Below are positions 1 to 21,413 of a stretch of DNA of 37,945 bases, piece by piece. Numbering within the stretch: position 1 is the stretch's first letter; the number at the start of each line of letters is the position of its first letter. Source of the stretch: a virus (Monodnaviria > Loebvirae > Hofneiviricota > Faserviricetes > Tubulavirales > Inoviridae); the IMG/VR virus record IMGVR_UViG_2923312938_000004; one strand, given 5' to 3'. The notes beneath the pieces were generated by a model. The model was not told the origin of the DNA, did no database searches, and saw only the letters and a program-made list of their open reading frames with translations. Both the position numbers and the translations under genes were made by a program.

Positions 1-360
1 CTACTTCATTAAACCCAGTGTCAGTTTTCCGAGAATGAAAGCCTTCACCCGGAAGGCAAAATACAGCGACCATGCGCCGGTAATAATATTCAGGCAGACC
101 GGAAGGTTATCCGGAAACAGGCTGGACACGCTGATCCAGACCGGATGCGTGAATACCGGAGAGGTCAGCATCAGGGAAGAAAACTTTTCATTCACGAAGG
201 AAATAAAAACGCTGTAAAACCCATACCAGACCCCGACCGTGGTCAGTGCAATCACGGACTTGAGGAGAAAAAAACGCAGGAGGCACCGGAAAATAAACGG
301 CACCAGAAATATCATCATATCCTTAAAAAAGACGGTCAGTCCCATAAAAACAGCTGGCAT
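1..360 (-). CDS. gVI-like minor virion/membrane protein (119 aa, very hydrophobic)
   Basis: Complete ORF (stop at 1-3, ATG at 358-360) directly downstream of the gIII-like gene with 2-nt spacing. Multi-TM hydrophobic composition and position between gIII and gI as in Ff phages. SD-like GGTAGG upstream. Confidence 0.6.
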   Translation of the reverse strand: MPAVFMGLTVFFKDMMIFLVPFIFRCLLRFFLLKSVIALTTVGVWYGFYSVFISFVNEKFSSLMLTSPVFTHPVWISVSSLFPDNLPVCLNIITGAWSLYFAFRVKAFILGKLTLGLMK

Positions 361-362
361 AT

Positions 363-1691
363 TTACCTACCGGATAATGATTTATCAACCAGGATGACTA
401 ATGACACTGCGGTGATGACATAAATAAAAAAGCGAATAACCTCCCGCAGATAACCGTCATAAATACGACAGACACCTTCCGTGGAGAGATTAAAGGGCAT
501 TTCCTCACCCCCGAAAGGCCGGAATGAAAAACTTAAATCCAGTGGCACACAGACATCCCTGTTATTGCCGAAGAAGCCCTGAGGAATAATGCCGGAAAAA
601 TTAAGCACAGGCACATAATCTTCAATCAGGGGAATAAGTTCCTGAATCCGGTCCTGTACGCCCTGCTCCACTGAACTTATACCGTTCTCAATAATCCCCT
701 GCATAGTGCTGTTAAACTGCGCCTGAGACGAAGAGTAGTTTTTATCCGGCTCTGTCAGTGCGCCAAATTTTTCATCAATGCTGTGTAAATATTTCACCTG
801 CCTTTCTGTCATATAATCCATGGTAACAAGGGTTTTATTCTGAAGTTCAATGTAGCTGCTATGAAAACTGTCAATTTTGTCTCCGATGGCAGGCAGTCCG
901 GCATTCAGCAGATAATATATTTTTCTTCCCCACTCATCAGAAAGACCGTCATCCCCGTTTCCGGTGTTATTATCATTGCCGTCACTCCCGGTATTTCCAC
1001 CACCGGAATTATTACCGCCATCGCTGCCGGAATTATTATCTTCACTACCGTTGTTATCTTCCTCATTACCGTTGTCAGGAACAATTTTCCCGTCCTCAAT
1101 TTTATAACCCTCCCTTAAATAACAGGTGCTGTTATAAAGGTTCTGCCAGCCGGAACCGTTGGGAGTGCAGGAGTAATATTTTGCGTGAGCGCGCAACTCA
1201 GATAAAGGCATAGTTTCCCGCGGGGGATAATATCCTGAAAATGAACCACAGATTAACAGCGGATTATTATCACACTCCTGCCTCCTCAGTGTATCCGCAA
1301 GTTCAAGCAAATAGACAGCAGAAACCTGACCGGATACAGCGTTATCATTATCATCACCGGAACTGTTGTCCCCGTTGCCGCCGGAACTGTTATCCCCGTC
1401 ACCGCCATCACCATCCGAAGGCTCATAAGCTGCCACAGGGATCCAGTTAGTAGCGGCGACATCACCTGTTTCACTGCCAACAATCACACCTGTCGCCATA
1501 TAAATACAGCCATCCACAACAGCATACCATGTATTATCACTGCGAAACGCCCCGGAAAGTGACCCCTGCAGCGCCGGACGGGAAATACAGGCCTCATCAG
1601 ACTCCGTTAAATTAAAAGGCGCAAATGTTCTTGTGAATGACTCAGCAGATGAAAAGAACGGAAGAAATAAAAGCAGAAATAACAGCCGCAT
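363..1691 (-). CDS. gIII-like adsorption (minor coat) protein, 442 aa
   Basis: N-terminal signal peptide MRLLFLLLFLPFFSSA, Cys-containing domains, two Gly/Asn/Asp-rich low-complexity linkers, and a C-terminal membrane anchor (VIRFFIYVITAVSLVILV). Sits immediately after the major coat gene. GAGG SD upstream. Confidence 0.7.
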   Translation of the reverse strand: MRLLFLLLFLPFFSSAESFTRTFAPFNLTESDEACISRPALQGSLSGAFRSDNTWYAVVDGCIYMATGVIVGSETGDVAATNWIPVAAYEPSDGDGGDGDNSSGGNGDNSSGDDNDNAVSGQVSAVYLLELADTLRRQECDNNPLLICGSFSGYYPPRETMPLSELRAHAKYYSCTPNGSGWQNLYNSTCYLREGYKIEDGKIVPDNGNEEDNNGSEDNNSGSDGGNNSGGGNTGSDGNDNNTGNGDDGLSDEWGRKIYYLLNAGLPAIGDKIDSFHSSYIELQNKTLVTMDYMTERQVKYLHSIDEKFGALTEPDKNYSSSQAQFNSTMQGIIENGISSVEQGVQDRIQELIPLIEDYVPVLNFSGIIPQGFFGNNRDVCVPLDLSFSFRPFGGEEMPFNLSTEGVCRIYDGYLREVIRFFIYVITAVSLVILVDKSLSGR

Positions 1692-1704
1692 AATGACCTC
1701 TGAT

Positions 1705-1725
1705 AAAAAAGGGGCGCACGGCCCC
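1705..1725 (-). terminator. Intrinsic terminator between major coat gene and gIII-like gene
   Basis: Minus-strand GC hairpin (aggggccgtgcgcccct) followed by a U-run, located 20 nt after the gVIII stop and 14 nt before the gIII start. Ff phages have a terminator at the equivalent place. Confidence 0.6.
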
Positions 1726-1746
1726 TGTATTATTAATTAAACAGCA

Positions 1747-2022
1747 TCAGGAAGATGCCATTCTGAAGAGGGATTTAACTACGCGGAAACCAATCATTAA
1801 AGAAACGCCAAAGCCCAGTAAAAGAAATGCTGCGGTACCCACCACGCCCAGCGTTGACAAAATGGAGTTCACCACCGGGTCAATCATATCCTGGTTGATA
1901 ACTGCCTGTCCGGGGGTATAACTCACCCCTTCAGCCAGAACAGGACCGGACGCCAGCATCAGGGAAGATGCAATGACCAGAGGTTTTTTTACGAACGTAA
2001 CTGCTTTTTCACGAACAGACAT
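1747..2022 (-). CDS. Major coat protein (gVIII-like), 91-aa precursor
   Basis: ATG at 2022 preceded by AGGAG. Signal peptide ending ...GPVLA, acidic mature N-terminus, a single hydrophobic helix (LGVVGTAAFLLLGFGVSLMIGF) and a basic C-terminus (RVVKSLFR). This is the classic inovirus major capsid architecture. Confidence 0.8.
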   Translation of the reverse strand: MSVREKAVTFVKKPLVIASSLMLASGPVLAEGVSYTPGQAVINQDMIDPVVNSILSTLGVVGTAAFLLLGFGVSLMIGFRVVKSLFRMASS

Positions 2023-2042
2023 AATATATAACTCCTGTATTA

Positions 2043-2201
2043 TTACAAAAAAGATGAAAAAAGTGTTTTCGTCAGGGAAAACACATACCCGAAGCCAAAA
2101 CCGGCAAGCCAGCTGATGGCCCATATACCAAAAAGCGCAACAAGCGGAGGATAAGAACCCACGCCGGATATTGTCACAAGAAAATTTGTCTCAGAAAGCA
2201 T
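2043..2201 (-). CDS. Small hydrophobic virion protein (52 aa), gIX/gVII-like by position
   Basis: Hand-translated MLSETNFLVTISGVGSYPPLVALFGIWAISWLAGFGFGYVFSLTKTLFSSFL. Tightly packed between the 33-aa ORF and the major coat gene, as the small minor coat genes are in Ff phages. Confidence 0.5.
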   Translation of the reverse strand: MLSETNFLVTISGVGSYPPLVALFGIWAISWLAGFGFGYVFSLTKTLFSSFL

Positions 2202-2203
2202 GA

Positions 2204-2305
2204 TTAACGCCTTCCCGTAATGACTCCGCCAATAAAAGCCAGTGAAAATATCAGCACTGGCACAGCACCAAAGAGAATAAGAACGAAAAATTCAGTCGTG
2301 AGCAT
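2204..2305 (-). CDS. Small hydrophobic virion protein (33 aa), gVII/gIX-like
   Basis: Hand-translated MLTTEFFVLILFGAVPVLIFSLAFIGGVITGRR. Size, single TM and position after the ssDNA-binding gene match the Ff minor coat proteins. Confidence 0.5.
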   Translation of the reverse strand: MLTTEFFVLILFGAVPVLIFSLAFIGGVITGRR

Positions 2306-2315
2306 ATTTCAAAAA

Positions 2316-4191
<1,876 letters not shown>

Positions 4192-4473
4192 ATGAAAAAA
4201 GAAACAAAGCGCGGAGACACAACCGTAAGGATTAACGAAAACAGAAAACTGGAGCTAAAACGAAGAGTGCTGGAAATCGGTAATAAAACAGGTGAGCTAC
4301 TAAAACCATCAGAGATAGTAAACCACTTAATAGACAACTACTTAGATGATGCGGTGAAAGATCTAATAAGCAAAGAAGAACTTAAGAAAAAAAGGCAATG
4401 TGATCCCTTTTCCTGCATTCAGCAGACTACCCGCGAAGGATCGAAAGGATACGGTTTAACTGGAAACCCTTGA
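4192..4473 (+). CDS. Ribbon-helix-helix (RHH) DNA-binding regulator; 93 aa in this copy, 70 aa in copies B-E
   Basis: N-terminus TTVRINENRKLELKRRVLEIGNKTGELLKPSEIVNHLIDNYL fits a beta-strand/helix/helix RHH pattern. Divergent from Rep, like rstR versus rstA in CTXphi. Copy A has an A7 run at 4387-4393 where the other four copies have A8, so the 70-aa form ending KKKKAM is the consensus. Confidence 0.6.
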   Translation: MKKETKRGDTTVRINENRKLELKRRVLEIGNKTGELLKPSEIVNHLIDNYLDDAVKDLISKEELKKKRQCDPFSCIQQTTREGSKGYGLTGNP

Positions 4474-4489
4474 GTTTCCGTTGACTCTA

Positions 4490-4516
4490 CCCCCGTGTTA
4501 CAAGACGGGGGTTTTT
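4490..4516 (+). terminator. Intrinsic terminator downstream of the RHH regulator gene
   Basis: Stem cccccgt / acggggg with an 8-nt loop, followed by ttttt. Confidence 0.6.
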
Positions 4517-4705
4517 CTCCCGGCCTGTAACACATCGCTCTCTGATGTTAATGCAGGCGCTCCGCTCCTCGCAGGTTGTCGTTGTCGGCGTCCTCCTCCC
4601 GTCGTCCTTCTTCGCCTCCAACCTGCTGCGGTGCGGTACGACTGGATTAAGGGCGATTCAACTTCGTTACATGGACATTTAAAAAACAAAAGCATGAGGG
4701 GAAGA

Positions 4706-4879
4706 ATGAACAACTGGAGTGAGATCATATTAGACCTGCTGATGAAGCACATAATAGGTGGCGCTGCGATTGGCGTGGCTATCCTGTTGTTTGCCGGAGT
4801 GATTTTTCCTGTTGCGCTGAAGATAAGGAAGCTCACTGGCAGGAAAAAACAGCGAATAAAACAGAAACTCATCAGTTAA
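4706..4879 (+). CDS. Small membrane protein (57 aa) with polybasic C-terminal tail
   Basis: Strong SD GAGGGGAAG before the ATG at 4706. MNNWSEIILDLLMKHIIGGAAIGVAILLFAGVIFPVALKIRKLTGRKKQRIKQKLIS has one TM helix plus a Lys/Arg-rich tail. Intact in all five copies, whereas the upstream part of the long ORF is frame-broken in copy B. Confidence 0.55.
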   Translation: MNNWSEIILDLLMKHIIGGAAIGVAILLFAGVIFPVALKIRKLTGRKKQRIKQKLIS

Positions 4880-4883
4880 GGCC

Positions 4884-4977
4884 AGTGCGCACAATGACGT
4901 TATGTGTAAAAAGGCCGCTGCGGTGGAGAGTATCGCAGCGGCCTTTTCAACATAACGTGTAACACATTATGCGCACT
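4884..4977. other. Putative attP: inverted pair of dif-like XerC/XerD-arm sequences flanking a hairpin
   Basis: Plus strand 4884-4910 AGTGCGCACAA-TGACG-TTATGTGTAAA. Minus strand of 4945-4977 reads AGTGCGCATAA-TGTGTTACACG-TTATGTTGAAA. Compare E. coli dif GGTGCGCATAA-TGTATA-TTATGTTAAAT (recalled from memory). The two sites form a ~100-bp imperfect palindrome. Confidence 0.6.
4907..4947 (+). terminator. Bidirectional intrinsic terminator hairpin at the centre of the attP palindrome
   Basis: aaaaaa-GGCCGCTGCG-gtggagagtat-CGCAGCGGCC-tttt, 28 nt after the stop of the small membrane-protein gene. Confidence 0.6.
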
Positions 4978-5087
4978 GGCGTTGTGGTAGCTGAATTAAG
5001 GTGTCCGTGTGGGTACACAAACCCGGGAGTAAAAAAAGAAAACGCCTTATAACCTGGGAAAGTTATAAAGCGTCCCGGAAAATCCAG
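4976..5087. repeat. Intergenic direct repeat, copy 1 (~110 bp)
   Basis: ctggcgttgtggtagctgaattaaggtgtccgtgtgggtacac...gaaaacgccttataacctgggaaagttataaagcg...ggaaaatccag. About 88 percent identical by eye to 5286-5392. Confidence 0.7.
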
Positions 5088-5285
5088 AAATGGATACAAT
5101 GAAATATCCGTCTCAGTCAACGTAATTTACGTCTCAATCAACGTGATATACGGCCTTAACTGACATTATGTGTCTACTACCTACTCACCCTCACATAGAT
5201 GAGCAGCAAGACTATAACAAGTAAACATTACGGCGGATAACACCTGCAGACCTCTTGTTGAAAATTCCGGCTCAAAAGACGGCCT

Positions 5286-5392
5286 CTGGCGTTGTGATGG
5301 CTGAATTGAGATGTTCGTGTGGGTACACCGGGAAGTAAAAAAGAAAACGCCCTATAACCTGGGAAAGTTATAAGGCGCACTGGAAAATCCAG
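5286..5392. repeat. Intergenic direct repeat, copy 2 (~107 bp)
   Basis: ctggcgttgtgatggctgaattgagatgttcgtgtgggtacac...gaaaacgccctataacctgggaaagttataaggcg...ggaaaatccag. Partner of 4976-5087; part of a larger diverged ~300-bp duplication. Confidence 0.7.
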
Positions 5393-5775
5393 GTAATTAT
5401 GGGATGTACGCGTCTAAACCAACGTTATGTCCGCCTCAGTATGTGCCAGTCCACTGCCACATAACAGAGTGCGCAAATTGTAACGAGTAAAACATTATCG
5501 CCGATAACACATCAGGACCTCTGTTTGAAAATTCCGGCTCAAAAAGACGGCCTGTCAGTCATCAATTCCATCGAACGGCTTCATCAATGACTGTCCGACT
5601 CCCGTCTTGCGCCGCTCGTCTCGCTGGCTGCCCGCTAAAAGGCGGTCTGGCAGGCGGCGCGTTGCGCTGTTTCCTGCTGCTCTGTCATCTCTCCCCGGTT
5701 TCGGCGGGCTGACATCTGCGTCACATGAAACTTCATCATGCCGCCTTACATGTCCTGACGGACATCATCACACAC

Positions 5776-6996
5776 TCAGACCCGCCGGGCCTGAAGAACG
5801 ACGATGATATCGGTTTTCGCACGTTCATCAGAGTCTGAACCAAACACATCCGGCAGAAATGAAAGCCCTGTCCGCGCCTTTGATGTCTTGTTCTCCGCCA
5901 GTCCGCCCAGCACAATGATATCACCGTCATTCAGACTCACCGACGTGGACACCTCGCGCTTTATCAGCGTTGGCGTGTTATTCACCCCCGTATCCGTTTT
6001 TGCAAAGTTACTCAGCTGCTGAACGATATCCAGACCTATCACATCCTGCGTCACGGTGGGTTTTACCCGAAAAATAGCCCCGCTGCTGCGGTATTCCACG
6101 GACTGCACCGGAACCTTATCCTGCCATGACACTGATGACAGAACCGGCACATCAGACCCCACGCTGAAAACCGCCTCCTTACCGGAGATAACGCGCAGAC
6201 GTGGCGAACTGACCACCTGAAAACGGCTGTCGGTCCTGAATAACTCATACATTGCATCAACAGACCCCGTGCTGAGGCGAATAAAGTTATCCAGCCCCGA
6301 TGCGCTGCTCATGGTGATACTGAAACGACCGGATAAAAGCTCTGCGGCCAGCGCCAGACCTGAACCGTTACGCTCACTGGTCTGGACCTCAAACACATAC
6401 CCGGCAACCGAAACCTCCTGTGCCCTGACGTCAATCTGCGGCAGAAGCTGCCGGACAAGCTCAACTTCCCGGGCCGTTCCCCGGAACACAAACACATCCC
6501 CGGATGCACTGATGAACCGGGTACCACTGCTGACCGCCTGCCATGTCTGCTCACCGTTTGCCCCCTGAACCGGCTGTTGTGCGGCCGGAAGCTGACCCAG
6601 ACCGGAAAGCGCCTGATGCAGATACTCCACTGTCCGGTAACGGGGCGTGTAAACAAGGGATTTCAGCGGCTCCTCTGGTGCGGCAGGTGTATGACTGTAA
6701 ATATAATCAACGCCCTTTTTACGGCTTATCCTGATATTCATATTACCGAGATAACGGGTAATAAATTCCCGTTCATCGATATCCGGTGAAATATGCAGCG
6801 TGACGGCCCGCGGGTCATTGACCAGTTCAGGGGCCAGCATGAACGGTGTTTTCAGGACTTCCGTCCAGAGCAGCGTCACCGCATCAGGCAGGCTCATGCG
6901 GTTAATATCCAGTTCCGTCCCGGCTGAAAACGACGGCAGCGGGAATAACAGCGCCATTGCAGGCAGCACCGGGAGAAGTAATTTTCTGATATTCAT
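5776..6996 (-). CDS. Secretin (gIV-like outer-membrane export channel), 406 aa
   Basis: Signal peptide MNIRKLLLPVLPAMALLFPLPSFSA. C-terminus IIVLGGLAENKTSKARTGLSFLPDVFGSDSDERAKTDIIVVLQARRV resembles the conserved secretin/pIV C-terminal block. Last gene of the operon, after gI, as in Ff phages. Confidence 0.75.
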   Translation of the reverse strand: MNIRKLLLPVLPAMALLFPLPSFSAGTELDINRMSLPDAVTLLWTEVLKTPFMLAPELVNDPRAVTLHISPDIDEREFITRYLGNMNIRISRKKGVDYIYSHTPAAPEEPLKSLVYTPRYRTVEYLHQALSGLGQLPAAQQPVQGANGEQTWQAVSSGTRFISASGDVFVFRGTAREVELVRQLLPQIDVRAQEVSVAGYVFEVQTSERNGSGLALAAELLSGRFSITMSSASGLDNFIRLSTGSVDAMYELFRTDSRFQVVSSPRLRVISGKEAVFSVGSDVPVLSSVSWQDKVPVQSVEYRSSGAIFRVKPTVTQDVIGLDIVQQLSNFAKTDTGVNNTPTLIKREVSTSVSLNDGDIIVLGGLAENKTSKARTGLSFLPDVFGSDSDERAKTDIIVVLQARRV

Positions 6997-7005
6997 ATTC
7001 TGTCC

Positions 7006-8262
7006 CTATGGTGTGGTGAGAGAAACGGACATCCCCCCGGCACCGCTGCCGGACGAACGCGACGGGGAAGGTTCACTGCCTGACCCGCTGTGAAACGTGA
7101 TGTGTTCGCCATCCAGTTCCAGTACAGTAAGCAGCCCTTCATACGGCAGTTCACTGCGCACAAGCCGCGTGACGTTGCTGTTACTGCGCAGAATAAAAAC
7201 CCCCTGCCCGTTACCGTCACGCATATGACCGGAAAGCCGCCAGACACGGGAAAGCGGCAGTTCTGCCGGAGATGCGACCTGTGGTACAGGCGGCGCTTTT
7301 TCAGTGGTGATTACCTGTGGTGGTGCCTGCATGACCGTTGCAGCCGGCTCATCAGGTGTGCCGGAGAAAAAATCCAGCACAAGACGTCCCCAGAACCAGA
7401 AAAACAGGCCACCCACCACAACGGACAACAGTTTTTTACGGCGCGCCTGTTGCTGCTCCTTTCGTTCCTCTGCCGTGAAGGTCTGCAAATCCCCTTTCTC
7501 CTGCCGCTCACGCAGCCGCCGGAACTGCCGGAGGGTTCTGCCGGGCAACAGGGAATACATGGCGCGCATATCACAGACCCGCTGATGCTCACCCGTTCCG
7601 AGCAGTTCCATTCCGTCATCAAATACCATGTTTGTCGGATGGATACCGTAAAAGGACGGCGCATAAAAAACGCGGGATTCATTGGGACGGGAATTCGCCC
7701 GGGGAACACCGATATAAATTTTTGCCGAAATCAGGTGCGGCAGAAGCCCTTTCCGGCTGCCCGTATCGCCAAACTTATCCGGCATGCAGAGTTCCAGAAT
7801 ATCGGACACGACCGGGACACGAATACGATCAAGACGACGGCAGCGGACAATCAGCTCACCCGTGGATTTAAATATTTTGCTGTCAACGGCGGATTCATCC
7901 TGCACCTGAATATAAACATCCCAGCCCAGTTTCCCGGACTGTACAAACCATTTGTAATATTCCAGGTATTCCCGGCCGGAAGATGTGCCGTTAAGCCATG
8001 TTCCGACCTCATCCAGAAATAACGCACCAAACCGCTCCTTCTCATTTTCATCACAACCACGCCCCAGCGCCCAGAAATCTTCAGGACGAGGACGGGCCGG
8101 AAGCACGGTCAACGGATGCGATGAAGCCGGGTCCATTTTTTCAGTATCAAGCGGGTAATTTGCCGCAATTCTGTGTCCGCGACGGTAAAACTGTTTTGCC
8201 ACCATGGAGCAGAACAGCCCCTTCCCGTTGCGCATTTTTCCTGTCACCCAGTAAACAGCCAT
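7006..8262 (-). CDS. gI/Zot-like assembly NTPase (inner-membrane morphogenesis protein), 418 aa
   Basis: N-terminal P-loop-like motif VTGKMRNGKG (compare fd pI GKLGAGKT), a central TM segment (LLSVVVGGLFFWFWGRLVL) and a Pro-rich periplasmic tail. Sits between gVI and gIV. C-terminal length is uncertain: a C6 run at 7025-7030 gives 418 aa, a C5 run (copy C) gives 422 aa. Confidence 0.7.
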   Translation of the reverse strand: MAVYWVTGKMRNGKGLFCSMVAKQFYRRGHRIAANYPLDTEKMDPASSHPLTVLPARPRPEDFWALGRGCDENEKERFGALFLDEVGTWLNGTSSGREYLEYYKWFVQSGKLGWDVYIQVQDESAVDSKIFKSTGELIVRCRRLDRIRVPVVSDILELCMPDKFGDTGSRKGLLPHLISAKIYIGVPRANSRPNESRVFYAPSFYGIHPTNMVFDDGMELLGTGEHQRVCDMRAMYSLLPGRTLRQFRRLRERQEKGDLQTFTAEERKEQQQARRKKLLSVVVGGLFFWFWGRLVLDFFSGTPDEPAATVMQAPPQVITTEKAPPVPQVASPAELPLSRVWRLSGHMRDGNGQGVFILRSNSNVTRLVRSELPYEGLLTVLELDGEHITFHSGSGSEPSPSRSSGSGAGGMSVSLTTP

Positions 8263-8269
8263 AACACCC

Positions 8270-8629
8270 CTACTTCATTAAACCCAGTGTCAGTTTTCCG
8301 AGAATGAAAGCCTTCACCCGGAAGGCAAAATACAGCGACCATGCGCCGGTAATAATATTCAGGCAGACCGGAAGGTTATCCGGAAACAGGCTGGACACGC
8401 TGATCCAGACCGGATGCGTGAATACCGGAGAGGTCAGCATCAGGGAAGAAAACTTTTCATTCACGAAGGAAATAAAAACGCTGTAAAACCCATACCAGAC
8501 CCCGACCGTGGTCAGTGCAATCACGGACTTGAGGAGAAAAAAACGCAGGAGGCACCGGAAAATAAACGGCACCAGAAATATCATCATATCCTTAAAAAAG
8601 ACGGTCAGTCCCATAAAAACAGCTGGCAT
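8270..8629 (-). CDS. gVI-like minor virion/membrane protein (copy B)
   Basis: Identical 119-aa translation to copy A. Confidence 0.6.
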   Translation of the reverse strand: MPAVFMGLTVFFKDMMIFLVPFIFRCLLRFFLLKSVIALTTVGVWYGFYSVFISFVNEKFSSLMLTSPVFTHPVWISVSSLFPDNLPVCLNIITGAWSLYFAFRVKAFILGKLTLGLMK

Positions 8630-8631
8630 AT

Positions 8632-9960
8632 TTACCTACCGGATAATGATTTATCAACCAGGATGACTAATGACACTGCGGTGATGACATAAATAAAAAA
8701 GCGAATAACCTCCCGCAGATAACCGTCATAAATACGACAGACACCTTCCGTGGAGAGATTAAAGGGCATTTCCTCACCCCCGAAAGGCCGGAATGAAAAA
8801 CTTAAATCCAGTGGCACACAGACATCCCTGTTATTGCCGAAGAAGCCCTGAGGAATAATGCCGGAAAAATTAAGCACAGGCACATAATCTTCAATCAGGG
8901 GAATAAGTTCCTGAATCCGGTCCTGTACGCCCTGCTCCACTGAACTTATACCGTTCTCAATAATCCCCTGCATAGTGCTGTTAAACTGCGCCTGAGACGA
9001 AGAGTAGTTTTTATCCGGCTCTGTCAGTGCGCCAAATTTTTCATCAATGCTGTGTAAATATTTCACCTGCCTTTCTGTCATATAATCCATGGTAACAAGG
9101 GTTTTATTCTGAAGTTCAATGTAGCTGCTATGAAAACTGTCAATTTTGTCTCCGATGGCAGGCAGTCCGGCATTCAGCAGATAATATATTTTTCTTCCCC
9201 ACTCATCAGAAAGACCGTCATCCCCGTTTCCGGTGTTATTATCATTGCCGTCACTCCCGGTATTTCCACCACCGGAATTATTACCGCCATCGCTGCCGGA
9301 ATTATTATCTTCACTACCGTTGTTATCTTCCTCATTACCGTTGTCAGGAACAATTTTCCCGTCCTCAATTTTATAACCCTCCCTTAAATAACAGGTGCTG
9401 TTATAAAGGTTCTGCCAGCCGGAACCGTTGGGAGTGCAGGAGTAATATTTTGCGTGAGCGCGCAACTCAGATAAAGGCATAGTTTCCCGCGGGAGATAAT
9501 ATCCTGAAAATGAACCACAGATTAACAGCGGATTATTATCACACTCCTGCCTCCTCAGTGTATCCGCAAGTTCAAGCAAATAGACAGCAGAAACCTGACC
9601 GGATACAGCGTTATCATTATCATCACCGGAACTGTTGTCCCCGTTGCCGCCGGAACTGTTATCCCCGTCACCGCCATCACCATCCGAAGGCTCATAAGCT
9701 GCCACAGGGATCCAGTTAGTAGCGGCGACATCACCTGTTTCACTGCCAACAATCACACCTGTCGCCATATAAATACAGCCATCCACAACAGCATACCATG
9801 TATTATCACTGCGAAACGCCCCGGAAAGTGACCCCTGCAGCGCCGGACGGGAAATACAGGCCTCATCAGACTCCGTTAAATTAAAAGGCGCAAATGTTCT
9901 TGTGAATGACTCAGCAGATGAAAAGAACGGAAGAAATAAAAGCAGAAATAACAGCCGCAT
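8632..9960 (-). CDS. gIII-like adsorption protein (copy B), 442 aa
   Basis: Same as copy A except one residue (GYYLPRE versus GYYPPRE) caused by a G-to-A difference at 9486. Confidence 0.7.
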   Translation of the reverse strand: MRLLFLLLFLPFFSSAESFTRTFAPFNLTESDEACISRPALQGSLSGAFRSDNTWYAVVDGCIYMATGVIVGSETGDVAATNWIPVAAYEPSDGDGGDGDNSSGGNGDNSSGDDNDNAVSGQVSAVYLLELADTLRRQECDNNPLLICGSFSGYYLPRETMPLSELRAHAKYYSCTPNGSGWQNLYNSTCYLREGYKIEDGKIVPDNGNEEDNNGSEDNNSGSDGGNNSGGGNTGSDGNDNNTGNGDDGLSDEWGRKIYYLLNAGLPAIGDKIDSFHSSYIELQNKTLVTMDYMTERQVKYLHSIDEKFGALTEPDKNYSSSQAQFNSTMQGIIENGISSVEQGVQDRIQELIPLIEDYVPVLNFSGIIPQGFFGNNRDVCVPLDLSFSFRPFGGEEMPFNLSTEGVCRIYDGYLREVIRFFIYVITAVSLVILVDKSLSGR

Positions 9961-10015
9961 AATGACCTCTGATAAAAAAGGGGCGCACGGCCCCTGTATT
10001 ATTAATTAAACAGCA

Positions 10016-10291
10016 TCAGGAAGATGCCATTCTGAAGAGGGATTTAACTACGCGGAAACCAATCATTAAAGAAACGCCAAAGCCCAGTAAAAGAAATGCT
10101 GCGGTACCCACCACGCCCAGCGTTGACAAAATGGAGTTCACCACCGGGTCAATCATATCCTGGTTGATAACTGCCTGTCCGGGGGTATAACTCACCCCTT
10201 CAGCCAGAACAGGACCGGACGCCAGCATCAGGGAAGATGCAATGACCAGAGGTTTTTTTACGAACGTAACTGCTTTTTCACGAACAGACAT
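10016..10291 (-). CDS. Major coat protein (copy B)
   Basis: Identical to copy A at offset 8269. Confidence 0.8.
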   Translation of the reverse strand: MSVREKAVTFVKKPLVIASSLMLASGPVLAEGVSYTPGQAVINQDMIDPVVNSILSTLGVVGTAAFLLLGFGVSLMIGFRVVKSLFRMASS

Positions 10292-10311
10292 AATATATAA
10301 CTCCTGTATTA

Positions 10312-10470
10312 TTACAAAAAAGATGAAAAAAGTGTTTTCGTCAGGGAAAACACATACCCGAAGCCAAAACCGGCAAGCCAGCTGATGGCCCATATACCAA
10401 AAAGCGCAACAAGCGGAGGATAAGAACCCACGCCGGATATTGTCACAAGAAAATTTGTCTCAGAAAGCAT
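10312..10470 (-). CDS. Small hydrophobic virion protein, 52 aa (copy B)
   Basis: Coordinates from copy A plus 8269; flanking ORFs map at the same offset. Confidence 0.45.
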   Translation of the reverse strand: MLSETNFLVTISGVGSYPPLVALFGIWAISWLAGFGFGYVFSLTKTLFSSFL

Positions 10471-10472
10471 GA

Positions 10473-10574
10473 TTAACGCCTTCCCGTAATGACTCCGCCA
10501 ATAAAAGCCAGTGAAAATATCAGCACTGGCACAGCACCAAAGAGAATAAGAACGAAAAATTCAGTCGTGAGCAT
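10473..10574 (-). CDS. Small hydrophobic virion protein, 33 aa (copy B)
   Basis: ATG (cat on plus) verified at 10572-10574. Confidence 0.45.
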   Translation of the reverse strand: MLTTEFFVLILFGAVPVLIFSLAFIGGVITGRR

Positions 10575-10584
10575 ATTTCAAAAA

Positions 10585-12341
<1,757 letters not shown>

Positions 12342-12459
12342 TTACCGCATGCGCGCATCATAATCACATTTAACACGTGTTGTAAATACGCATGCGCTAT
12401 GCGGGTGTAAAAAAATGGAATAATCACCTTCTATTGAAAGGACATAGAGGTAAATTTTG

Positions 12460-12672
12460 ATGAAAAAAGAAACAAAGCGCGGAGACACAACCGTAAGGAT
12501 TAACGAAAACAGAAAACTGGAGCTAAAACGAAGAGTGCTGGAAATCGGTAATAAAACAGGTGAGCTACTAAAACCATCAGAGATAGTAAACCACTTAATA
12601 GACAACTACTTAGATGATGCGGTGAAAGATCTAATAAGCAAAGAAGAACTTAAGAAAAAAAAGGCAATGTGA
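12460..12672 (+). CDS. RHH DNA-binding regulator, 70 aa (copy B, consensus form)
   Basis: A8 run gives stop after ...KKKKAM. Confidence 0.6.
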   Translation: MKKETKRGDTTVRINENRKLELKRRVLEIGNKTGELLKPSEIVNHLIDNYLDDAVKDLISKEELKKKKAM

Positions 12673-12973
12673 TCCCTTTTCCTGCATTCAGCAGACTACC
12701 CGCGAAGGATCGAAAGGATACGGTTTAACTGGAAACCCTTGAGTTTCCGTTGACTCTACCCCCGTGTTACAAGACGGGGGTTTTTCTCCCGGCCTGTAAC
12801 ACATCGCTCTCTGATGTTAATGCAGGCGCTCCGCTCCTCGCAGGTTGTCGTTGTCGGCGTCCTCCTCCCGTCGTCCTTCTTCGCCTCCAACCTGCTGCGG
12901 TGCGGTACGACTGGATTAAGGGCGATTCAACTTCGTTACATGGACATTTAAAAACAAAAGCATGAGGGGAAGA

Positions 12974-13147
12974 ATGAACAACTGGAGTGAGATCATATTA
13001 GACCTGCTGATGAAGCACATAATAGGTGGCGCTGCGATTGGCGTGGCTATCCTGTTGTTTGCCGGAGTGATTTTTCCTGTTGCGCTGAAGATAAGGAAGC
13101 TCACTGGCAGGAAAAAACAGCGAATAAAACAGAAACTCATCAGTTAA
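12974..13147 (+). CDS. Small membrane protein with polybasic tail (copy B)
   Basis: ATG at 12974 after GAGGGGAAG; identical 57 aa. Confidence 0.55.
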   Translation: MNNWSEIILDLLMKHIIGGAAIGVAILLFAGVIFPVALKIRKLTGRKKQRIKQKLIS

Positions 13148-13151
13148 GGCC

Positions 13152-13245
13152 AGTGCGCACAATGACGTTATGTGTAAAAAGGCCGCTGCGGTGGAGAGTA
13201 TCGCAGCGGCCTTTTCAACATAACGTGTAACACATTATGCGCACT
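13152..13245. other. Putative attP dif-like inverted pair (copy B)
   Basis: Same sequence as 4884-4977. Confidence 0.6.
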
Positions 13246-14042
13246 GGCGTTGTGGTAGCTGAATTAAGGTGTCCGTGTGGGTACACAAACCCGGGAGTAA
13301 AAAAAGAAAACGCCTTATAACCTGGGAAAGTTATAAAGCGTCCCGGAAAATCCAGAAATGGATACAATGAAATATCCGTCTCAGTCAACGTAATTTACGT
13401 CTCAATCAACGTGATATACGGCCTTAACTGACATTATGTGTCTACTACCTACTCACCCTCACATAGATGAGCAGCAAGACTATAACAAGTAAACATTACG
13501 GCGGATAACACCTGCAGACCTCTTGTTGAAAATTCCGGCTCAAAAGACGGCCTCTGGCGTTGTGATGGCTGAATTGAGATGTTCGTGTGGGTACACCGGG
13601 AAGTAAAAAGAAAACGCCCTATAACCTGGGAAAGTTATAAGGCGCACTGGAAAATCCAGGTAATTATGGGATGTACGCGTCTAAACCAACGTTATGTCCG
13701 CCTCAGTATGTGCCAGTCCACTGCCACATAACAGAGTGCGCAAATTGTAACGAGTAAAACATTATCGCCGATAACACATCAGGACCTCTGTTTGAAAATT
13801 CCGGCTCAAAAAGACGGCCTGTCAGTCATCAATTCCATCGAACGGCTTCATCAATGACTGTCCGACTCCCGTCTTGCGCCGCTCGTCTCGCTGGCTGCCC
13901 GCTAAAAGGCGGTCTGGCAGGCGGCGCGTTGCGCTGTTTCCTGCTGCTCTGTCATCTCTCCCCGGTTTCGGCGGGCTGACATCTGCGTCACATGAAACTT
14001 CATCATGCCGCCTTACATGTCCTGACGGACATCATCACACAC

Positions 14043-15263
14043 TCAGACCCGCCGGGCCTGAAGAACGACGATGATATCGGTTTTCGCACGTTCATCAGAG
14101 TCTGAACCAAACACATCCGGCAGAAATGAAAGCCCTGTCCGCGCCTTTGATGTCTTGTTCTCCGCCAGTCCGCCCAGCACAATGATATCACCGTCATTCA
14201 GACTCACCGACGTGGACACCTCGCGCTTTATCAGCGTTGGCGTGTTATTCACCCCCGTATCCGTTTTTGCAAAGTTACTCAGCTGCTGAACGATATCCAG
14301 ACCTATCACATCCTGCGTCACGGTGGGTTTTACCCGAAAAATAGCCCCGCTGCTGCGGTATTCCACGGACTGCACCGGAACCTTATCCTGCCATGACACT
14401 GATGACAGAACCGGCACATCAGACCCCACGCTGAAAACCGCCTCCTTACCGGAGATAACGCGCAGACGTGGCGAACTGACCACCTGAAAACGGCTGTCGG
14501 TCCTGAATAACTCATACATTGCATCAACAGACCCCGTGCTGAGGCGAATAAAGTTATCCAGCCCCGATGCGCTGCTCATGGTGATACTGAAACGACCGGA
14601 TAAAAGCTCTGCGGCCAGCGCCAGACCTGAACCGTTACGCTCACTGGTCTGGACCTCAAACACATACCCGGCAACCGAAACCTCCTGTGCCCTGACGTCA
14701 ATCTGCGGCAGAAGCTGCCGGACAAGCTCAACTTCCCGGGCCGTTCCCCGGAACACAAACACATCCCCGGATGCACTGATGAACCGGGTACCACTGCTGA
14801 CCGCCTGCCATGTCTGCTCACCGTTTGCCCCCTGAACCGGCTGTTGTGCGGCCGGAAGCTGACCCAGACCGGAAAGCGCCTGATGCAGATACTCCACTGT
14901 CCGGTAACGGGGCGTGTAAACAAGGGATTTCAGCGGCTCCTCTGGTGCGGCAGGTGTATGACTGTAAATATAATCAACGCCCTTTTTACGGCTTATCCTG
15001 ATATTCATATTACCGAGATAACGGGTAATAAATTCCCGTTCATCGATATCCGGTGAAATATGCAGCGTGACGGCCCGCGGGTCATTGACCAGTTCAGGGG
15101 CCAGCATGAACGGTGTTTTCAGGACTTCCGTCCAGAGCAGCGTCACCGCATCAGGCAGGCTCATGCGGTTAATATCCAGTTCCGTCCCGGCTGAAAACGA
15201 CGGCAGCGGGAATAACAGCGCCATTGCAGGCAGCACCGGGAGAAGTAATTTTCTGATATTCAT
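14043..15263 (-). CDS. Secretin gIV-like (copy B)
   Basis: Identical 406-aa translation. Confidence 0.75.
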   Translation of the reverse strand: MNIRKLLLPVLPAMALLFPLPSFSAGTELDINRMSLPDAVTLLWTEVLKTPFMLAPELVNDPRAVTLHISPDIDEREFITRYLGNMNIRISRKKGVDYIYSHTPAAPEEPLKSLVYTPRYRTVEYLHQALSGLGQLPAAQQPVQGANGEQTWQAVSSGTRFISASGDVFVFRGTAREVELVRQLLPQIDVRAQEVSVAGYVFEVQTSERNGSGLALAAELLSGRFSITMSSASGLDNFIRLSTGSVDAMYELFRTDSRFQVVSSPRLRVISGKEAVFSVGSDVPVLSSVSWQDKVPVQSVEYRSSGAIFRVKPTVTQDVIGLDIVQQLSNFAKTDTGVNNTPTLIKREVSTSVSLNDGDIIVLGGLAENKTSKARTGLSFLPDVFGSDSDERAKTDIIVVLQARRV

Positions 15264-16527
15264 ATTCTGTCCCTATGGTGTGGTGAGAGAAACGGACATC
15301 CCCCGGCACCGCTGCCGGACGAACGCGACGGGGAAGGTTCACTGCCTGACCCGCTGTGAAACGTGATGTGTTCGCCATCCAGTTCCAGTACAGTAAGCAG
15401 CCCTTCATACGGCAGTTCACTGCGCACAAGCCGCGTGACGTTGCTGTTACTGCGCAGAATAAAAACCCCCTGCCCGTTACCGTCACGCATATGACCGGAA
15501 AGCCGCCAGACACGGGAAAGCGGCAGTTCTGCCGGAGATGCGACCTGTGGTACAGGCGGCGCTTTTTCAGTGGTGATTACCTGTGGTGGTGCCTGCATGA
15601 CCGTTGCAGCCGGCTCATCAGGTGTGCCGGAGAAAAAATCCAGCACAAGACGTCCCCAGAACCAGAAAACAGGCCACCCACCACAACGGACAACAGTTTT
15701 TTACGGCGCGCCTGTTGCTGCTCCTTTCGTTCCTCTGCCGTGAAGGTCTGCAAATCCCCTTTCTCCTGCCGCTCACGCAGCCGCCGGAACTGCCGGAGGG
15801 TTCTGCCGGGCAACAGGGAATACATGGCGCGCATATCACAGACCCGCTGATGCTCACCCGTTCCGAGCAGTTCCATTCCGTCATCAAATACCATGTTTGT
15901 CGGATGGATACCGTAAAAGGACGGCGCATAAAAAACGCGGGATTCATTGGGACGGGAATTCGCCCGGGGAACACCGATATAAATTTTTGCCGAAATCAGG
16001 TGCGGCAGAAGCCCTTTCCGGCTGCCCGTATCGCCAAACTTATCCGGCATGCAGAGTTCCAGAATATCGGACACGACCGGGACACGAATACGATCAAGAC
16101 GACGGCAGCGGACAATCAGCTCACCCGTGGATTTAAATATTTTGCTGTCAACGGCGGATTCATCCTGCACCTGAATATAAACATCCCAGCCCAGTTTCCC
16201 GGACTGTACAAACCATTTGTAATATTCCAGGTATTCCCGGCCGGAAGATGTGCCGTTAAGCCATGTTCCGACCTCATCCAGAAATAACGCACCAAACCGC
16301 TCCTTCTCATTTTCATCACAACCACGCCCCAGCGCCCAGAAATCTTCAGGACGAGGACGGGCCGGAAGCACGGTCAACGGATGCGATGAAGCCGGGTCCA
16401 TTTTTTCAGTATCAAGCGGGTAATTTGCCGCAATTCTGTGTCCGCGACGGTAAAACTGTTTTGCCACCATGGAGCAGAACAGCCCCTTCCCGTTGCGCAT
16501 TTTTCCTGTCACCCAGTAAACAGCCAT
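15260..16527 (-). pseudogene. gI/Zot-like assembly NTPase, frame-broken in this copy
   Basis: Split into a 316-aa N-terminal ORF (15577-16527) and a 128-aa C-terminal ORF (15260-15646). The A-run at about 15661-15664 is one A shorter than copy A (cagaaaacaggcc versus cagaaaaacaggcc). Probably a homopolymer sequencing error. Confidence 0.6.
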
Positions 16528-16534
16528 AACACCC

Positions 16535-16893
16535 CTACTTCATTAAACCCAGTGTCAGTTTTCCGAGAATGAAAGCCTTCACCCGGAAGGCAAAATACAG
16601 CGACCATGCGCCGGTAATAATATTCAGGCAGACCGGAAGGTTATCCGGAAACAGGCTGGACACGCTGATCCAGACCGGATGCGTGAATACCGGAGAGGTC
16701 AGCATCAGGGAAGAAAACTTTTCATTCACGAAGGAAATAAAAACGCTGTAAAACCCATACCAGACCCCGACCGTGGTCAGTGCAATCACGGACTTGAGGA
16801 GAAAAAACGCAGGAGGCACCGGAAAATAAACGGCACCAGAAATATCATCATATCCTTAAAAAAGACGGTCAGTCCCATAAAAACAGCTGGCAT
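16535..16893 (-). pseudogene. gVI-like protein, frame-broken N-terminal region (copy C)
   Basis: 94-aa ORF only (16535-16819). The A-run at about 16802 is one shorter than in the other copies. Confidence 0.5.
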
Positions 16894-16895
16894 AT

Positions 16896-18221
16896 TTACC
16901 TACCGGATAATGATTTATCAACCAGGATGACTAATGACACTGCGGTGATGACATAAATAAAAAAGCGAATAACCTCCCGCAGATAACCGTCATAAATACG
17001 ACAGACACCTTCCGTGGAGAGATTAAAGGGCATTTCCTCACCCCCGAAAGGCCGGAATGAAAAACTTAAATCCAGTGGCACACAGACATCCCTGTTATTG
17101 CCGAAGAAGCCCTGAGGAATAATGCCGGAAAAATTAAGCACAGGCACATAATCTTCAATCAGGGGAATAAGTTCCTGAATCCGGTCCTGTACGCCCTGCT
17201 CCACTGAACTTATACCGTTCTCAATAATCCCCTGCATAGTGCTGTTAAACTGCGCCTGAGACGAAGAGTAGTTTTTATCCGGCTCTGTCAGTGCGCCAAA
17301 TTTTTCATCAATGCTGTGTAAATATTTCACCTGCCTTTCTGTCATATAATCCATGTAACAAGGGTTTTATTCTGAAGTTCAATGTAGCTGCTATGAAAAC
17401 TGTCAATTTTGTCTCCGATGCAGGCAGTCCGGCATTCAGCAGATAATATATTTTCTTCCCCACTCATCAGAAAGACCGTCATCCCCGTTTCCGGTGTTAT
17501 TATCATTGCCGTCACTCCCGGTATTTCCACCACCGGAATTATTACCGCCATCGCTGCCGGAATTATTATCTTCACTACCGTTGTTATCTTCCTCATTACC
17601 GTTGTCAGGAACAATTTTCCCGTCCTCAATTTTATAACCCTCCCTTAAATAACAGGTGCTGTTATAAAGGTTCTGCCAGCCGGAACCGTTGGGAGTGCAG
17701 GAGTAATATTTTGCGTGAGCGCGCAACTCAGATAAAGGCATAGTTTCCCGCGGGAGATAATATCCTGAAAATGAACCACAGATTAACAGCGGATTATTAT
17801 CACACTCCTGCCTCCTCAGTGTATCCGCAAGTTCAAGCAAATAGACAGCAGAAACCTGACCGGATACAGCGTTATCATTATCATCACCGGAACTGTTGTC
17901 CCCGTTGCCGCCGGAACTGTTATCCCCGTCACCGCCATCACCATCCGAAGGCTCATAAGCTGCCACAGGGATCCAGTTAGTAGCGGCGACATCACCTGTT
18001 TCACTGCCAACAATCACACCTGTCGCCATATAAATACAGCCATCCACAACAGCATACCATGTATTATCACTGCGAAACGCCCCGGAAAGTGACCCCTGCA
18101 GCGCCGGACGGGAAATACAGGCCTCATCAGACTCCGTTAAATTAAAAGGCGCAAATGTTCTTGTGAATGACTCAGCAGATGAAAAGAACGGAAGAAATAA
18201 AAGCAGAAATAACAGCCGCAT
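16896..18221 (-). pseudogene. gIII-like adsorption protein, multiple frameshifts (copy C)
   Basis: Broken into 152-, 95- and 261-aa ORFs by 1-nt deletions near 17355 (ccatgtaac versus ccatggtaac), 17420 and 17455. Confidence 0.6.
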
Positions 18222-18276
18222 AATGACCTCTGATAAAAAAGGGGCGCACGGCCCCTGTATTATTAATTAAACAGCA

Positions 18277-18551
18277 TCAGGAAGATGCCATTCTGAAGAG
18301 GGATTTAACTACGCGGAAACCAATCATTAAAGAAACGCCAAAGCCCAGTAAAAGAAATGCTGCGGTACCCACCACGCCCAGCGTTGACAAAATGGAGTTC
18401 ACCACCGGGTCAATCATATCCTGGTTGATAACTGCCTGTCCGGGGGTATAACTCACCCCTTCAGCCAGAACAGGACCGGACGCCAGCATCAGGGAAGATG
18501 CAATGACCAGAGGTTTTTTACGAACGTAACTGCTTTTTCACGAACAGACAT
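18277..18551 (-). pseudogene. Major coat protein, frameshifted near the signal-peptide region (copy C)
   Basis: T6 run at 18505-18510 versus T7 in the other copies; only the C-terminal 70 aa remain in frame. Confidence 0.55.
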
Positions 18552-18571
18552 AATATATAACTCCTGTATTA

Positions 18572-18730
18572 TTACAAAAAAGATGAAAAAAGTGTTTTCG
18601 TCAGGGAAAACACATACCCGAAGCCAAAACCGGCAAGCCAGCTGATGGCCCATATACCAAAAAGCGCAACAAGCGGAGGATAAGAACCCACGCCGGATAT
18701 TGTCACAAGAAAATTTGTCTCAGAAAGCAT
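18572..18730 (-). CDS. Small hydrophobic virion protein, 52 aa (copy C)
   Basis: Stop (tta on plus) verified at 18572-18574. Confidence 0.45.
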   Translation of the reverse strand: MLSETNFLVTISGVGSYPPLVALFGIWAISWLAGFGFGYVFSLTKTLFSSFL

Positions 18731-18732
18731 GA

Positions 18733-18834
18733 TTAACGCCTTCCCGTAATGACTCCGCCAATAAAAGCCAGTGAAAATATCAGCACTGGCACAGCACCAA
18801 AGAGAATAAGAACGAAAAATTCAGTCGTGAGCAT
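18733..18834 (-). CDS. Small hydrophobic virion protein, 33 aa (copy C)
   Basis: ATG verified at 18832-18834. Confidence 0.45.
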   Translation of the reverse strand: MLTTEFFVLILFGAVPVLIFSLAFIGGVITGRR

Positions 18835-18844
18835 ATTTCAAAAA

Positions 18845-20601
<1,757 letters not shown>

Positions 20602-20720
20602 TTACCGCATGCGCGCATCATAATCACATTTAACACGTGTTGTAAATACGCATGCGCTATGCGGGTGTAAAAAAAATGGAATAATCACCTTCTATTGAAA
20701 GGACATAGAGGTAAATTTTG

Positions 20721-20933
20721 ATGAAAAAAGAAACAAAGCGCGGAGACACAACCGTAAGGATTAACGAAAACAGAAAACTGGAGCTAAAACGAAGAGTGCT
20801 GGAAATCGGTAATAAAACAGGTGAGCTACTAAAACCATCAGAGATAGTAAACCACTTAATAGACAACTACTTAGATGATGCGGTGAAAGATCTAATAAGC
20901 AAAGAAGAACTTAAGAAAAAAAAGGCAATGTGA
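20721..20933 (+). CDS. RHH DNA-binding regulator, 70 aa (copy C)
   Basis: Identical to the copy B form. Confidence 0.6.
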   Translation: MKKETKRGDTTVRINENRKLELKRRVLEIGNKTGELLKPSEIVNHLIDNYLDDAVKDLISKEELKKKKAM

Positions 20934-21235
20934 TCCCTTTTCCTGCATTCAGCAGACTACCCGCGAAGGATCGAAAGGATACGGTTTAACTGGAAACCCT
21001 TGAGTTTCCGTTGACTCTACCCCCGTGTTACAAGACGGGGGTTTTTCTCCCGGCCTGTAACACATCGCTCTCTGATGTTAATGCAGGCGCTCCGCTCCTC
21101 GCAGGTTGTCGTTGTCGGCGTCCTCCTCCCGTCGTCCTTCTTCGCCTCCAACCTGCTGCGGTGCGGTACGACTGGATTAAGGGCGATTCAACTTCGTTAC
21201 ATGGACATTTAAAAAACAAAAGCATGAGGGGAAGA

Positions 21236-21409: not shown

Positions 21410-21413
21410 GGCC

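Follow-up and report, generated by a model that had tools for sequence, protein, structure and literature searches.

The locus raises a simple question: when the copies of a tandem prophage array differ by single nucleotides and several genes appear broken as a result, is it the phage that has changed or only its sequence record? The window, meaning the whole stretch of 37,945 bp that was analysed (IMG/VR record IMGVR_UViG_2923312938_000004), consists of 4.59 head-to-tail copies of one 8,270-bp inovirus prophage unit, with a repeat period of 8,264–8,269 nt between the copies. A sequence-only reading had proposed that nearly all the differences between copies are 1-nt changes in homopolymer length that break reading frames, that this pattern is typical of uncorrected long-read error and that the apparent pseudogenes are probably artefacts; slipped-strand variation in a real prophage array was kept as the alternative. 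Our analysis leads us to hold, with strong confidence, that the copy-to-copy differences are residual consensus errors of a long-read-derived sequence and not biology. The apparent pseudogenes are almost certainly artefacts.

The copies lie end to end as copy A (1–8269), copy B (8270–16534), copy C (16535–24798), copy D (24799–33065) and a partial copy E of 4880 nt (33066–37945, or unit positions 1–4880). They were aligned by MAFFT over 8,270 columns, and the majority consensus of the copies was taken as the reference. Measured against it, copy A deviates once (A7 at 4387–4393), copy B six times, copy C seven times, copy D three times and copy E not at all. Host DNA is absent at both ends of the window. 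The first base falls in the stop codon of a g6-like gene (unit 1), and the last is unit 4880, the final base of the last phage gene preceding the host junction. Unit 4880 is also where a chromosomal provirus called in IMG/VR (L009) ends. This suggests that the window is a provirus cut back to the limits of its genes, stopping 97 bp short of the junction on the hipA side. The copy number is about five in the window, a figure taken from the assembled sequence alone, and one to three in finished genomes.

The unit carries inovirus morphogenesis and structural genes together with a rolling-circle Rep. On the minus strand of copy A, and intact there, are the genes for the pI/Zot assembly protein (7006–8262, 418 aa, Pfam Zot), the pIV secretin (5776–6996, 406 aa, Pfam Secretin) and a g3p-like attachment protein (363–1691, 442 aa, Pfam Phage_Coat_A). 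The same strand encodes an RstA-like Rep (2661–3857, Pfam Rep_trans). The secretin gene is identical in copies A–D and the Rep gene in all five copies. The Pfam scores for Zot, Secretin, Phage_Coat_A and Rep_trans all exceed their cut-offs, and PHROGs and tblastn are concordant. Several small ORFs of the unit match only PHROG families that have no function attached. Pfam and PHROGs also return no functional name for three ORFs that figure below, namely the g6-like ORF, a coat-like ORF and a supposed RHH regulator. The coat-like ORF (91 aa, 1747–2022, minus strand, intact in copy A) lies upstream of g3p and combines a signal peptide with one hydrophobic helix and a basic tail, features by which it is the putative major coat protein. 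The supposed regulator is a 70-aa ORF on the plus strand, intact in copy E at 37257–37469; RHH regulator is a putative label, to which neither Pfam nor PHROGs lends support.

The unit matches a prophage in Escherichia coli chromosomes. Prophage copies in strains 503829, 504211 and 503440 match the majority consensus at 100.000% identity and with 0 gaps across its full 8,270 bp. The consensus is also 100% identical to an IMG/VR provirus, and it differs by one substitution each from the copies in TW10573 and in the finished reference genome of E24377A. The template is an intact, already sequenced dif-integrating inovirus of enterotoxigenic E. coli (ETEC) of the E24377A type. No DNA match was returned by megablast of the unit against a phage collection, and a plasmid collection gave only partial matches of at most 13%; on these results we rejected the unit as a known plasmid or a deposited phage genome.

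In those E. coli genomes, the prophage is flanked by a fimbrial gene cluster on one side and by hipA/hipB on the other. In 503829, E24377A and 504211, its left junction is E. coli dif with one mismatch, and the prophage ends in finished chromosomes overlap by the 13-bp sequence ACATTATGCGCAC. These three strains thus combine a dif-like attP with insertion at the chromosomal dif. In the window, the same 13-bp dif-like core, ACATTATGCGCAC, is located at 4964–4976 of copy A (unit 4965–4977) and recurs in copies B–D, while copy E, stopping at unit 4880, does not reach it. A search of the window for the canonical 28-bp E. coli dif, allowing up to three mismatches, gave no hit, and the phage itself bears only a partial dif-like site. 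We infer that the window array, which carries no host flank, is integrated at dif as well. Host-flanked arrays of two copies are present in 503440, TW10573 and 504211, and one of three copies in 503829.

A tandem arrangement of this sort is of a known kind. Tandem integration at dif is the norm for phages like CTXphi, YpfPhi and UPphi, and CTXphi of Vibrio cholerae, YpfPhi of Yersinia pestis and UPphi901 of E. coli share with the unit the head-to-tail copies and the dif-like attP (PMC7307601, PMC4266046). The unit resembles the dif-integrating inoviruses in having Zot/pI, a pIV secretin and a g3p-like protein and, in finished E. coli genomes, in its insertion beside hipA at dif. Its Rep is 33% identical to CTXphi RstA over 95% of its length, and its pI is only 32% identical to that of M13. 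Unlike CTXphi, which is not known to encode a secretin of its own, the unit has one.

Against this background, the differences among the copies can be described site by site. There are 13 variable columns and, when each deviating copy is counted, 17 deviating events. Sixteen of these are one-nucleotide deletions, none is an insertion, and the remaining one is a G>A change common to copies B and C. In the pI gene, a run at codon 411 of 418 has six C residues in the consensus and the reference, as it does in copies A (7033–7038) and D (31829–31834). It is reduced to C5 in copy B (15300–15304), which rewrites the last 8 residues of pI and adds 4 more. The same deletion in copy C (23563–23567) is also found in the low-quality end of a public record, CP025865.1. 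A second deletion in pI of copy B makes A4 (15666–15669) of the A5 present in copy A (7400–7404) and shifts the frame from residue 288. The g3p-like gene is hit most often in copy C, by three deletions. Two of them leave G for GG (17355 and 17420) and lie outside homopolymers, and the third leaves T4 for T5 (17451–17454). Copy D has the T4 for T5 deletion as well (25718–25721), and also G4 for G5 (26019–26022), again with a frameshift in the g3p-like gene. That same G5 run is where B and C carry their shared substitution, reading GGGAG at 9491–9495 (G>A at 9494) and at 17752–17756 (G>A at 17755); in copy B the result is Pro156Leu in the g3p-like protein. This change, common to two adjacent copies, cannot be put down to a miscounted run length and may be a genuine variant.

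The remaining coding deletions fall in the ORFs lacking a functional name. In copy C, A6 for A7 (16802–16807) shifts the frame of the g6-like ORF from residue 27, and T6 (18514–18519) for the T7 of copy A (1984–1990) shifts that of the coat-like ORF at residue 13 of 91. In copy A, A7 (4387–4393) replaces the A8 seen at 12655–12662 of copy B; it falls at residue 68 of 70 in the plus-strand ORF, changes the tail and turns the 70-aa product into one of 93 aa. Four of the 13 sites (unit 4140, 4508, 4682 and 5338) are intergenic and break no ORF. They comprise three shortened runs in copy B, namely A7 for A8 upstream of the 70-aa ORF (12409–12415) and A5 for A6 at both 12950–12954 and 13605–13609, and one in copy D, G4 for G5 at 29304–29307. 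Taken by copy, C has the g6-like, g3p and coat-like frameshifts and the altered pI tail, B the g3p missense and two pI deletions, D the two g3p deletions, and A nothing more than the altered tail of the 70-aa ORF.

The sequence-only reading described most of these changes correctly but misplaced several. Its C6 versus C5 contrast is real, although positions 7025–7030, where it put the first run, read ACGGAC and the run begins 8 nt to the right; the second run had been placed at 15296. The pI A-run had been given as about 7413 versus 15661 and the shorter coat T-run as 18505, each some nucleotides away from the runs listed above, while the A8 said to start at 12656 begins one base earlier. Of the names it used, major coat fits the sequence features of the 91-aa ORF, whereas RHH regulator is a label that the profile searches leave unsupported. 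Its several g3p deletions in copies C and D are all present, three in C and two in D. Its statement that the changes break ORFs holds for the nine sites that lie in ORFs but not for the four intergenic ones.

The statistical character of the differences is that of a homopolymer length error. Of the 13 sites, 11 belong to homopolymers of 5–8 nt, the exceptions being the two GG dinucleotides, both in copy C; if events are counted, 15 of 17 are in runs of at least 5, the substitution included since it falls within a G5. This much of the earlier description, that practically all the differences are 1-nt changes of run length, is borne out. Runs of at least 5 nt make up 3.8% of the unit, and the binomial probability of finding 11 of 13 sites there is 1.8e-14. 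The percentage of run instances that deviate is 0, 0.04, 0 and 0 for lengths 1 to 4, and then 4.3, 5.4, 10.5 and 20 for lengths 5 to 8. The direction is exclusively toward loss in all 16 indels (P = 3e-5). Long-read homopolymer error is expected to give 1-nt indels located in runs, at a rate depending on run length, in one direction and with few substitutions, and this is what the window contains. The overall deviation rate is 4.5e-4 per base, or about Q33.

The events are also unevenly placed. Eleven of the 17 are within 12408–18519, a tract of 6.1 kb that spans the boundary of copies B and C, and in 5000 simulations weighted by run length none reached 11 events in such a tract. We presume that it is a stretch of low-quality consensus. 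If the array had exactly five copies (about 41.3 kb), the tract would lie at 15.7–21.8 kb, in the central part of the array, where unique anchors are most distant; we give this position as no more than suggestive. Coding sequence receives 13 of the 17 events (76%), close to the share of about 81% that is coding. At three sites, two or three copies are affected, as shared descent might explain. Recurrence at the same site is not above chance (P = 0.07), and on that basis we rejected it as a mark of either systematic error or shared descent.

Finished genomes provide the comparison with accurately determined sequence. In the finished arrays of two or three copies, there are 0 indel differences between copies, and each copy encodes the same RefSeq proteins. 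At 11 of the 13 sites, the run length is constant in all relatives fetched, down to about 95% identity. The natural divergence among these relatives is mostly by substitution, as in one provirus whose pIV and pI genes show 33 mismatches and 0 gaps. The G5 at unit 1222, altered in copies B, C and D, is invariant across all relatives. The GGGAG variant of copies B and C had no match in exact-pattern scans of viral, genome and metagenome collections, and exact-protein look-ups of two truncated products specific to the window gave none either. The 422-aa pI that results from C5 is on only 2 contigs, both of strain 504211. The deviant alleles are thus on 2–6 contigs where recovered at all, versus at least 1000 for the consensus allele, and it is the consensus that restores the genes.

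The A7 run in copy A requires separate comment, since seven related loci carry A7, which might be taken for a natural polymorphism at the level of the lineage. Related loci that encode the 93-aa product have A7, or have it in two of three array copies. However, these loci were retrieved by virtue of encoding that product, so their A7 frequency is an effect of ascertainment. A protein cluster census counts at least 1000 contigs with the 70-aa (A8) product and 4 with the 93-aa (A7) product, and a contig look-up finds the latter in 6 places, including three short Logan contigs. Ascertainment and census together led us to reject the lineage-level polymorphism. The NCBI contigs bearing the 93-aa product are 0.5–5 Mb long, which suggests that they are long-read assemblies, and one A7 record (L014) is error-ridden, with fragmented genes. 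The most plausible reading of A7 is an error that recurs at the unit's longest run, and it is possible that a real slippage event occurred at this site.

A positive control for the proposed error comes from strain 504211. The 422-aa C5 pI of copy C is found elsewhere in the final 15 kb of CP025865.1, a PacBio record of this strain, and those 15 kb repeat the host-plus-prophage locus from the start of the same circular record. The simplest account of the repeat is that an overlap in the assembly was left untrimmed and that its end had poor support. Aligned over 13.4 kb, the two versions have 0 mismatches and are separated by 13 one-base indels. Twelve of the indels are in the prophage part, all in runs of 2–6 nt, and one is the identical C6-to-C5 change (unit 7034) of window copies B and C. 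Because the overlap contains this change, the C5 "allele" can be seen to arise independently as an assembly error on the same phage sequence. The overlap is like the window in involving the same prophage and in having one-nucleotide indels in short runs; it has no substitutions over its length. It is unlike the window in that 3 of the 12 prophage indels are insertions and the runs are of 2–6 nt, whereas every indel of the window is a deletion and most are in runs of 5–8 nt.

Errors of this class have been described before. Those that remain in long-read assemblies are chiefly homopolymer indels, which lead to frameshifts and a surplus of pseudogenes (PMC8011154), and false deletions are in the majority (PMC12007338). 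They are especially hard to remove from repeats, where they outlast short-read polishing, alignment being unreliable there (PMC8812927). The window shares homopolymer 1-nt indels, deletion bias, inflation of pseudogenes and persistence in repeats with the errors treated by Homopolish, Kastor and Polypolish (PMC8011154, PMC12007338 and PMC8812927). Such errors can be corrected by means of close homologues, a role played here by the other copies and the finished genomes, which give a perfect match. Unlike strictly systematic long-read errors, those in the window differ among copies of identical context. Because the copies are not hit alike, as they would be by strongly systematic errors, we take the errors to be stochastic and of the kind that low depth produces.

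The course of events that we propose begins with a template of identical 8,270-bp copies of the dif-integrating ETEC inovirus, arranged as a tandem array or a concatemer. Only reads longer than 8.3 kb could lay out such an array, and long-read basecalling and consensus would under-call homopolymer length. Reads that are not uniquely placeable inside a perfect repeat would leave a low effective depth for each copy and would cause short-read polishing to fail. Stochastic 1-nt deletions would then be left standing in one copy or another and be densest in a single stretch; since reads lacking unique sequence could not be assigned to the inner copies, errors there would be expected both to survive and to concentrate. 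The deletions would shift reading frames, and gene callers would report pseudogenes. With high probability, the true sequence of every copy would be the majority consensus with all its genes intact. What the analysis shows directly is the error signature, the perfect match of the consensus and the lack of that signature in accurate genomes; we infer a long-read platform, a low depth and failed polishing.

The alternative raised at the outset is that all the differences are slipped-strand mutations, built up among the redundant units of a genuine chromosomal array whose host may have been deficient in mismatch repair, with several copies being true pseudogene relics. Real slippage likewise scales with run length, its rates rising with the length of the run (PMC8510543). 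Tandem arrays of this prophage do exist at dif in finished genomes, where redundancy would relax selection, and the near-proportionate share of events in coding sequence gives no sign of purifying selection, though errors predict the same. The spectrum is nevertheless wrong for replication error. In mutation-accumulation data on mismatch-repair-defective E. coli, of realistic backgrounds the one most prone to slippage, base substitutions number about 6.0 per gene and small indels 0.85, or about 7:1 (PMC8510543, Table 3), whereas the ratio of indels to substitutions in the window is at least 8:1 as opposed to about 1:7. The probability of 16 deletions, no insertions and at most 2 substitutions under mutator spectra is about 1e-13 (PMC8510543). 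The clustering of events in a contiguous 6-kb tract across two copies, the lack of between-copy indels in finished arrays, the near absence of the variant alleles among thousands of public contigs and the presence of the identical C5 in a demonstrably duplicated, low-quality assembly end all argue the same way. Comparison with contingency loci is no more favorable. Phase-variable homopolymeric tracts share with the window the 1-nt changes of run length that switch frames, but slippage there would be expected to bring both gains and losses at long tracts in promoters or 5' coding regions, with the alternative lengths recurring in accurately sequenced natural isolates. The window has losses only, in tracts of 2–8 nt scattered through genes and spacers, and the variants are not found in natural populations; A7 and C5 are in few records, mostly probable long-read assemblies. 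We regard slippage throughout the array as extremely improbable, and the sequence-only reading's first choice, uncorrected long-read error, is the one upheld by the run-length dependence, the one-way deletions, the scarcity of substitutions, the clustering, the absence of the alleles from relatives and the PacBio control.

More restricted forms of heterogeneity are harder to set aside than wholesale slippage, but they too meet contrary evidence. Most differences might be errors while a minority is real, the candidates being the g3p substitution of copies B and C (G>A, Pro156Leu) and the shortening of A8 to A7 in the regulator-like tail, so that the array would be slightly heterogeneous. The substitution is not a change of homopolymer length and is common to neighbouring copies. 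A7 tails are on six other public contigs, the three short Logan contigs among them, and the A8 tracts, as the longest in the unit, are the likeliest sites of real slippage. Yet the invariance of G5 at unit 1222 in relatives, together with the copy D deletion in the same run, points to a run that is troublesome for consensus and not to a polymorphic one. The A7 product stands at 4–6 contigs to at least 1000 for A8, from a retrieval ascertained on that product, and its NCBI contigs of 0.5–5 Mb look like long-read assemblies, one of them error-ridden. We consider a real minority of this kind improbable. A version with functional consequences, which we rate as very improbable, would make slippage hot spots of the A8 tracts at unit 4140 (in the spacer upstream of the regulator) and 4387 (in its last codons), with the G>A marking a true sub-lineage of copies. 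Slippage would then toggle, in single copies, either expression of the regulator or its C-terminal tail (70 versus 93 aa), and the array would be a heterogeneous, partly phase-variable set of prophages instead of identical copies. A different kind of doubt concerns the array itself. It might be an artefact, a concatemer of the circular 8.27-kb replicative form left by an uncircularised assembly or by rolling-circle amplification, in which the differences are read errors from repeated passes of one molecule. The lack of host DNA at either end, a length of 37.9 kb that is within the range of a single long read, an accuracy of about Q33 that fits lightly corrected sequence and copy junctions of the attP type, as a circular form would give, all agree with this. 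The junctions do not discriminate, however, since genuine chromosomal arrays have the same internal junctions as the window, and the end at unit 4880 shared with the chromosomal IMG/VR provirus fits a gene-trimmed chromosomal provirus. We think the concatemer unlikely, though well worth bearing in mind, and it would alter only the status of the array; the differences would still be errors.

Residual long-read consensus error, as the preferred reading, changes what should be made of the annotation. The apparent pseudogenes in the pI, g3p, coat-like, g6-like and regulator-like ORFs of copies A–D do not indicate prophage decay, defective satellites or phase variation. The check that the sequence-only reading had recommended, a majority consensus with ORFs called anew, returns the 12 intact genes and the exact match to 503829, 504211 and 503440 given above, and its suspicion that the pseudogenes are artefacts is supported to that extent. 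The element is best annotated from the majority consensus, as an intact 8,270-bp inovirus like that of ETEC E24377A, one substitution apart. The value of the finding is mainly in quality control. The tandem copies act as an internal check, in that voting among copies and comparison with finished genomes recover a perfect sequence without recourse to reads. The same class of error sits in at least one public "complete" record, in the untrimmed ends of CP025865.1.

Two A8 tracts, the longest homopolymers in the unit, bracket the small regulator-like gene; in window coordinates they lie at 4140-4147 (unit 4140) and 4387-4393 (unit 4387). One lies in the spacer that separates the divergent gene sets, and the other lies in the last three codons of the regulator-like gene itself. 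Both tracts deviate in the window, and in a few other records that are probably derived from long reads. A related inovirus forms a three-copy array on another large contig (GCA_024768295.1 JAMJNN010000008.1, 1-20282), and there the tract in the tail of the regulator is A8 in one copy out of three and A7 in the remaining two. This mixture is probably the same artefact in a different assembly. Within the window, the g3p gene of copy C has three 1-nt deletions inside 100 nt (17355-17454), two of which fall in GG pairs preceded by AT rather than in homopolymers. The three total -3; therefore, the downstream frame is restored, and the garbling is limited to about 33 codons.

The chromosome record of E. 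coli 504211 (CP025865.1), public and labelled 'complete', carries the prophage together with hipA', hipB and the host genes of the lsrK side at each of its two ends. When the version at 4934798-4950457 is compared to the version at 1-41853, there are 0 mismatches and 13 indels, and the prophage copy number is unequal between the two. The duplicated ends are an assembly overlap that was left untrimmed and unpolished. The frameshifted pI of this record carries a RefSeq annotation, WP_250186166.1.

The dif locus of strain 504211 (650-33250 in the same record) holds two distinct inoviruses in tandem: the 8.27-kb type is present twice, and an 8.0-kb type at least twice. The two types have their morphogenesis and structural modules in common at 96-98% identity. 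The replication module of the 8.0-kb type differs, consisting of a phage/plasmid replication protein and an ssDNA-binding protein. The pair is an instance of modular exchange among co-resident dif phages. In a related array in E. coli E94 (L010), an ISEc31 insertion is found beside pIV at the identical place in both tandem copies (1779-2992 and 11310-12523), and therefore the unit was duplicated after the IS inserted. That order of events supports the view that arrays are genuinely amplified in vivo.

The phage attP is at window 4948-4976 (unit 4949-4977) and recurs in copies B-D. Its likeness to dif is only partial. The XerC-arm side (TTATGCGCAC) and the neighbouring ACA are identical to dif. 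Between them and a XerD-arm-like AACATAA lies a spacer longer than the 6-bp dif core (AACATAACGTGTAACACATTATGCGCAC). After integration, the left junction is a dif regenerated with 1 mismatch, and the hipA side keeps the phage-type site. The right end of the window is probably 97 bp from this hipA-side host junction.

Position 1 of the window (unit 1) coincides exactly with the end of the g6-like ORF, at its stop codon, and position 37945 (unit 4880) is exactly the final base of the 57-aa ORF. Unit 4880 is also where an IMG/VR provirus of this phage on a chromosome (L009) ends. Since both window ends are gene ends and the right one matches that record, the window looks like a provirus call trimmed at gene boundaries.
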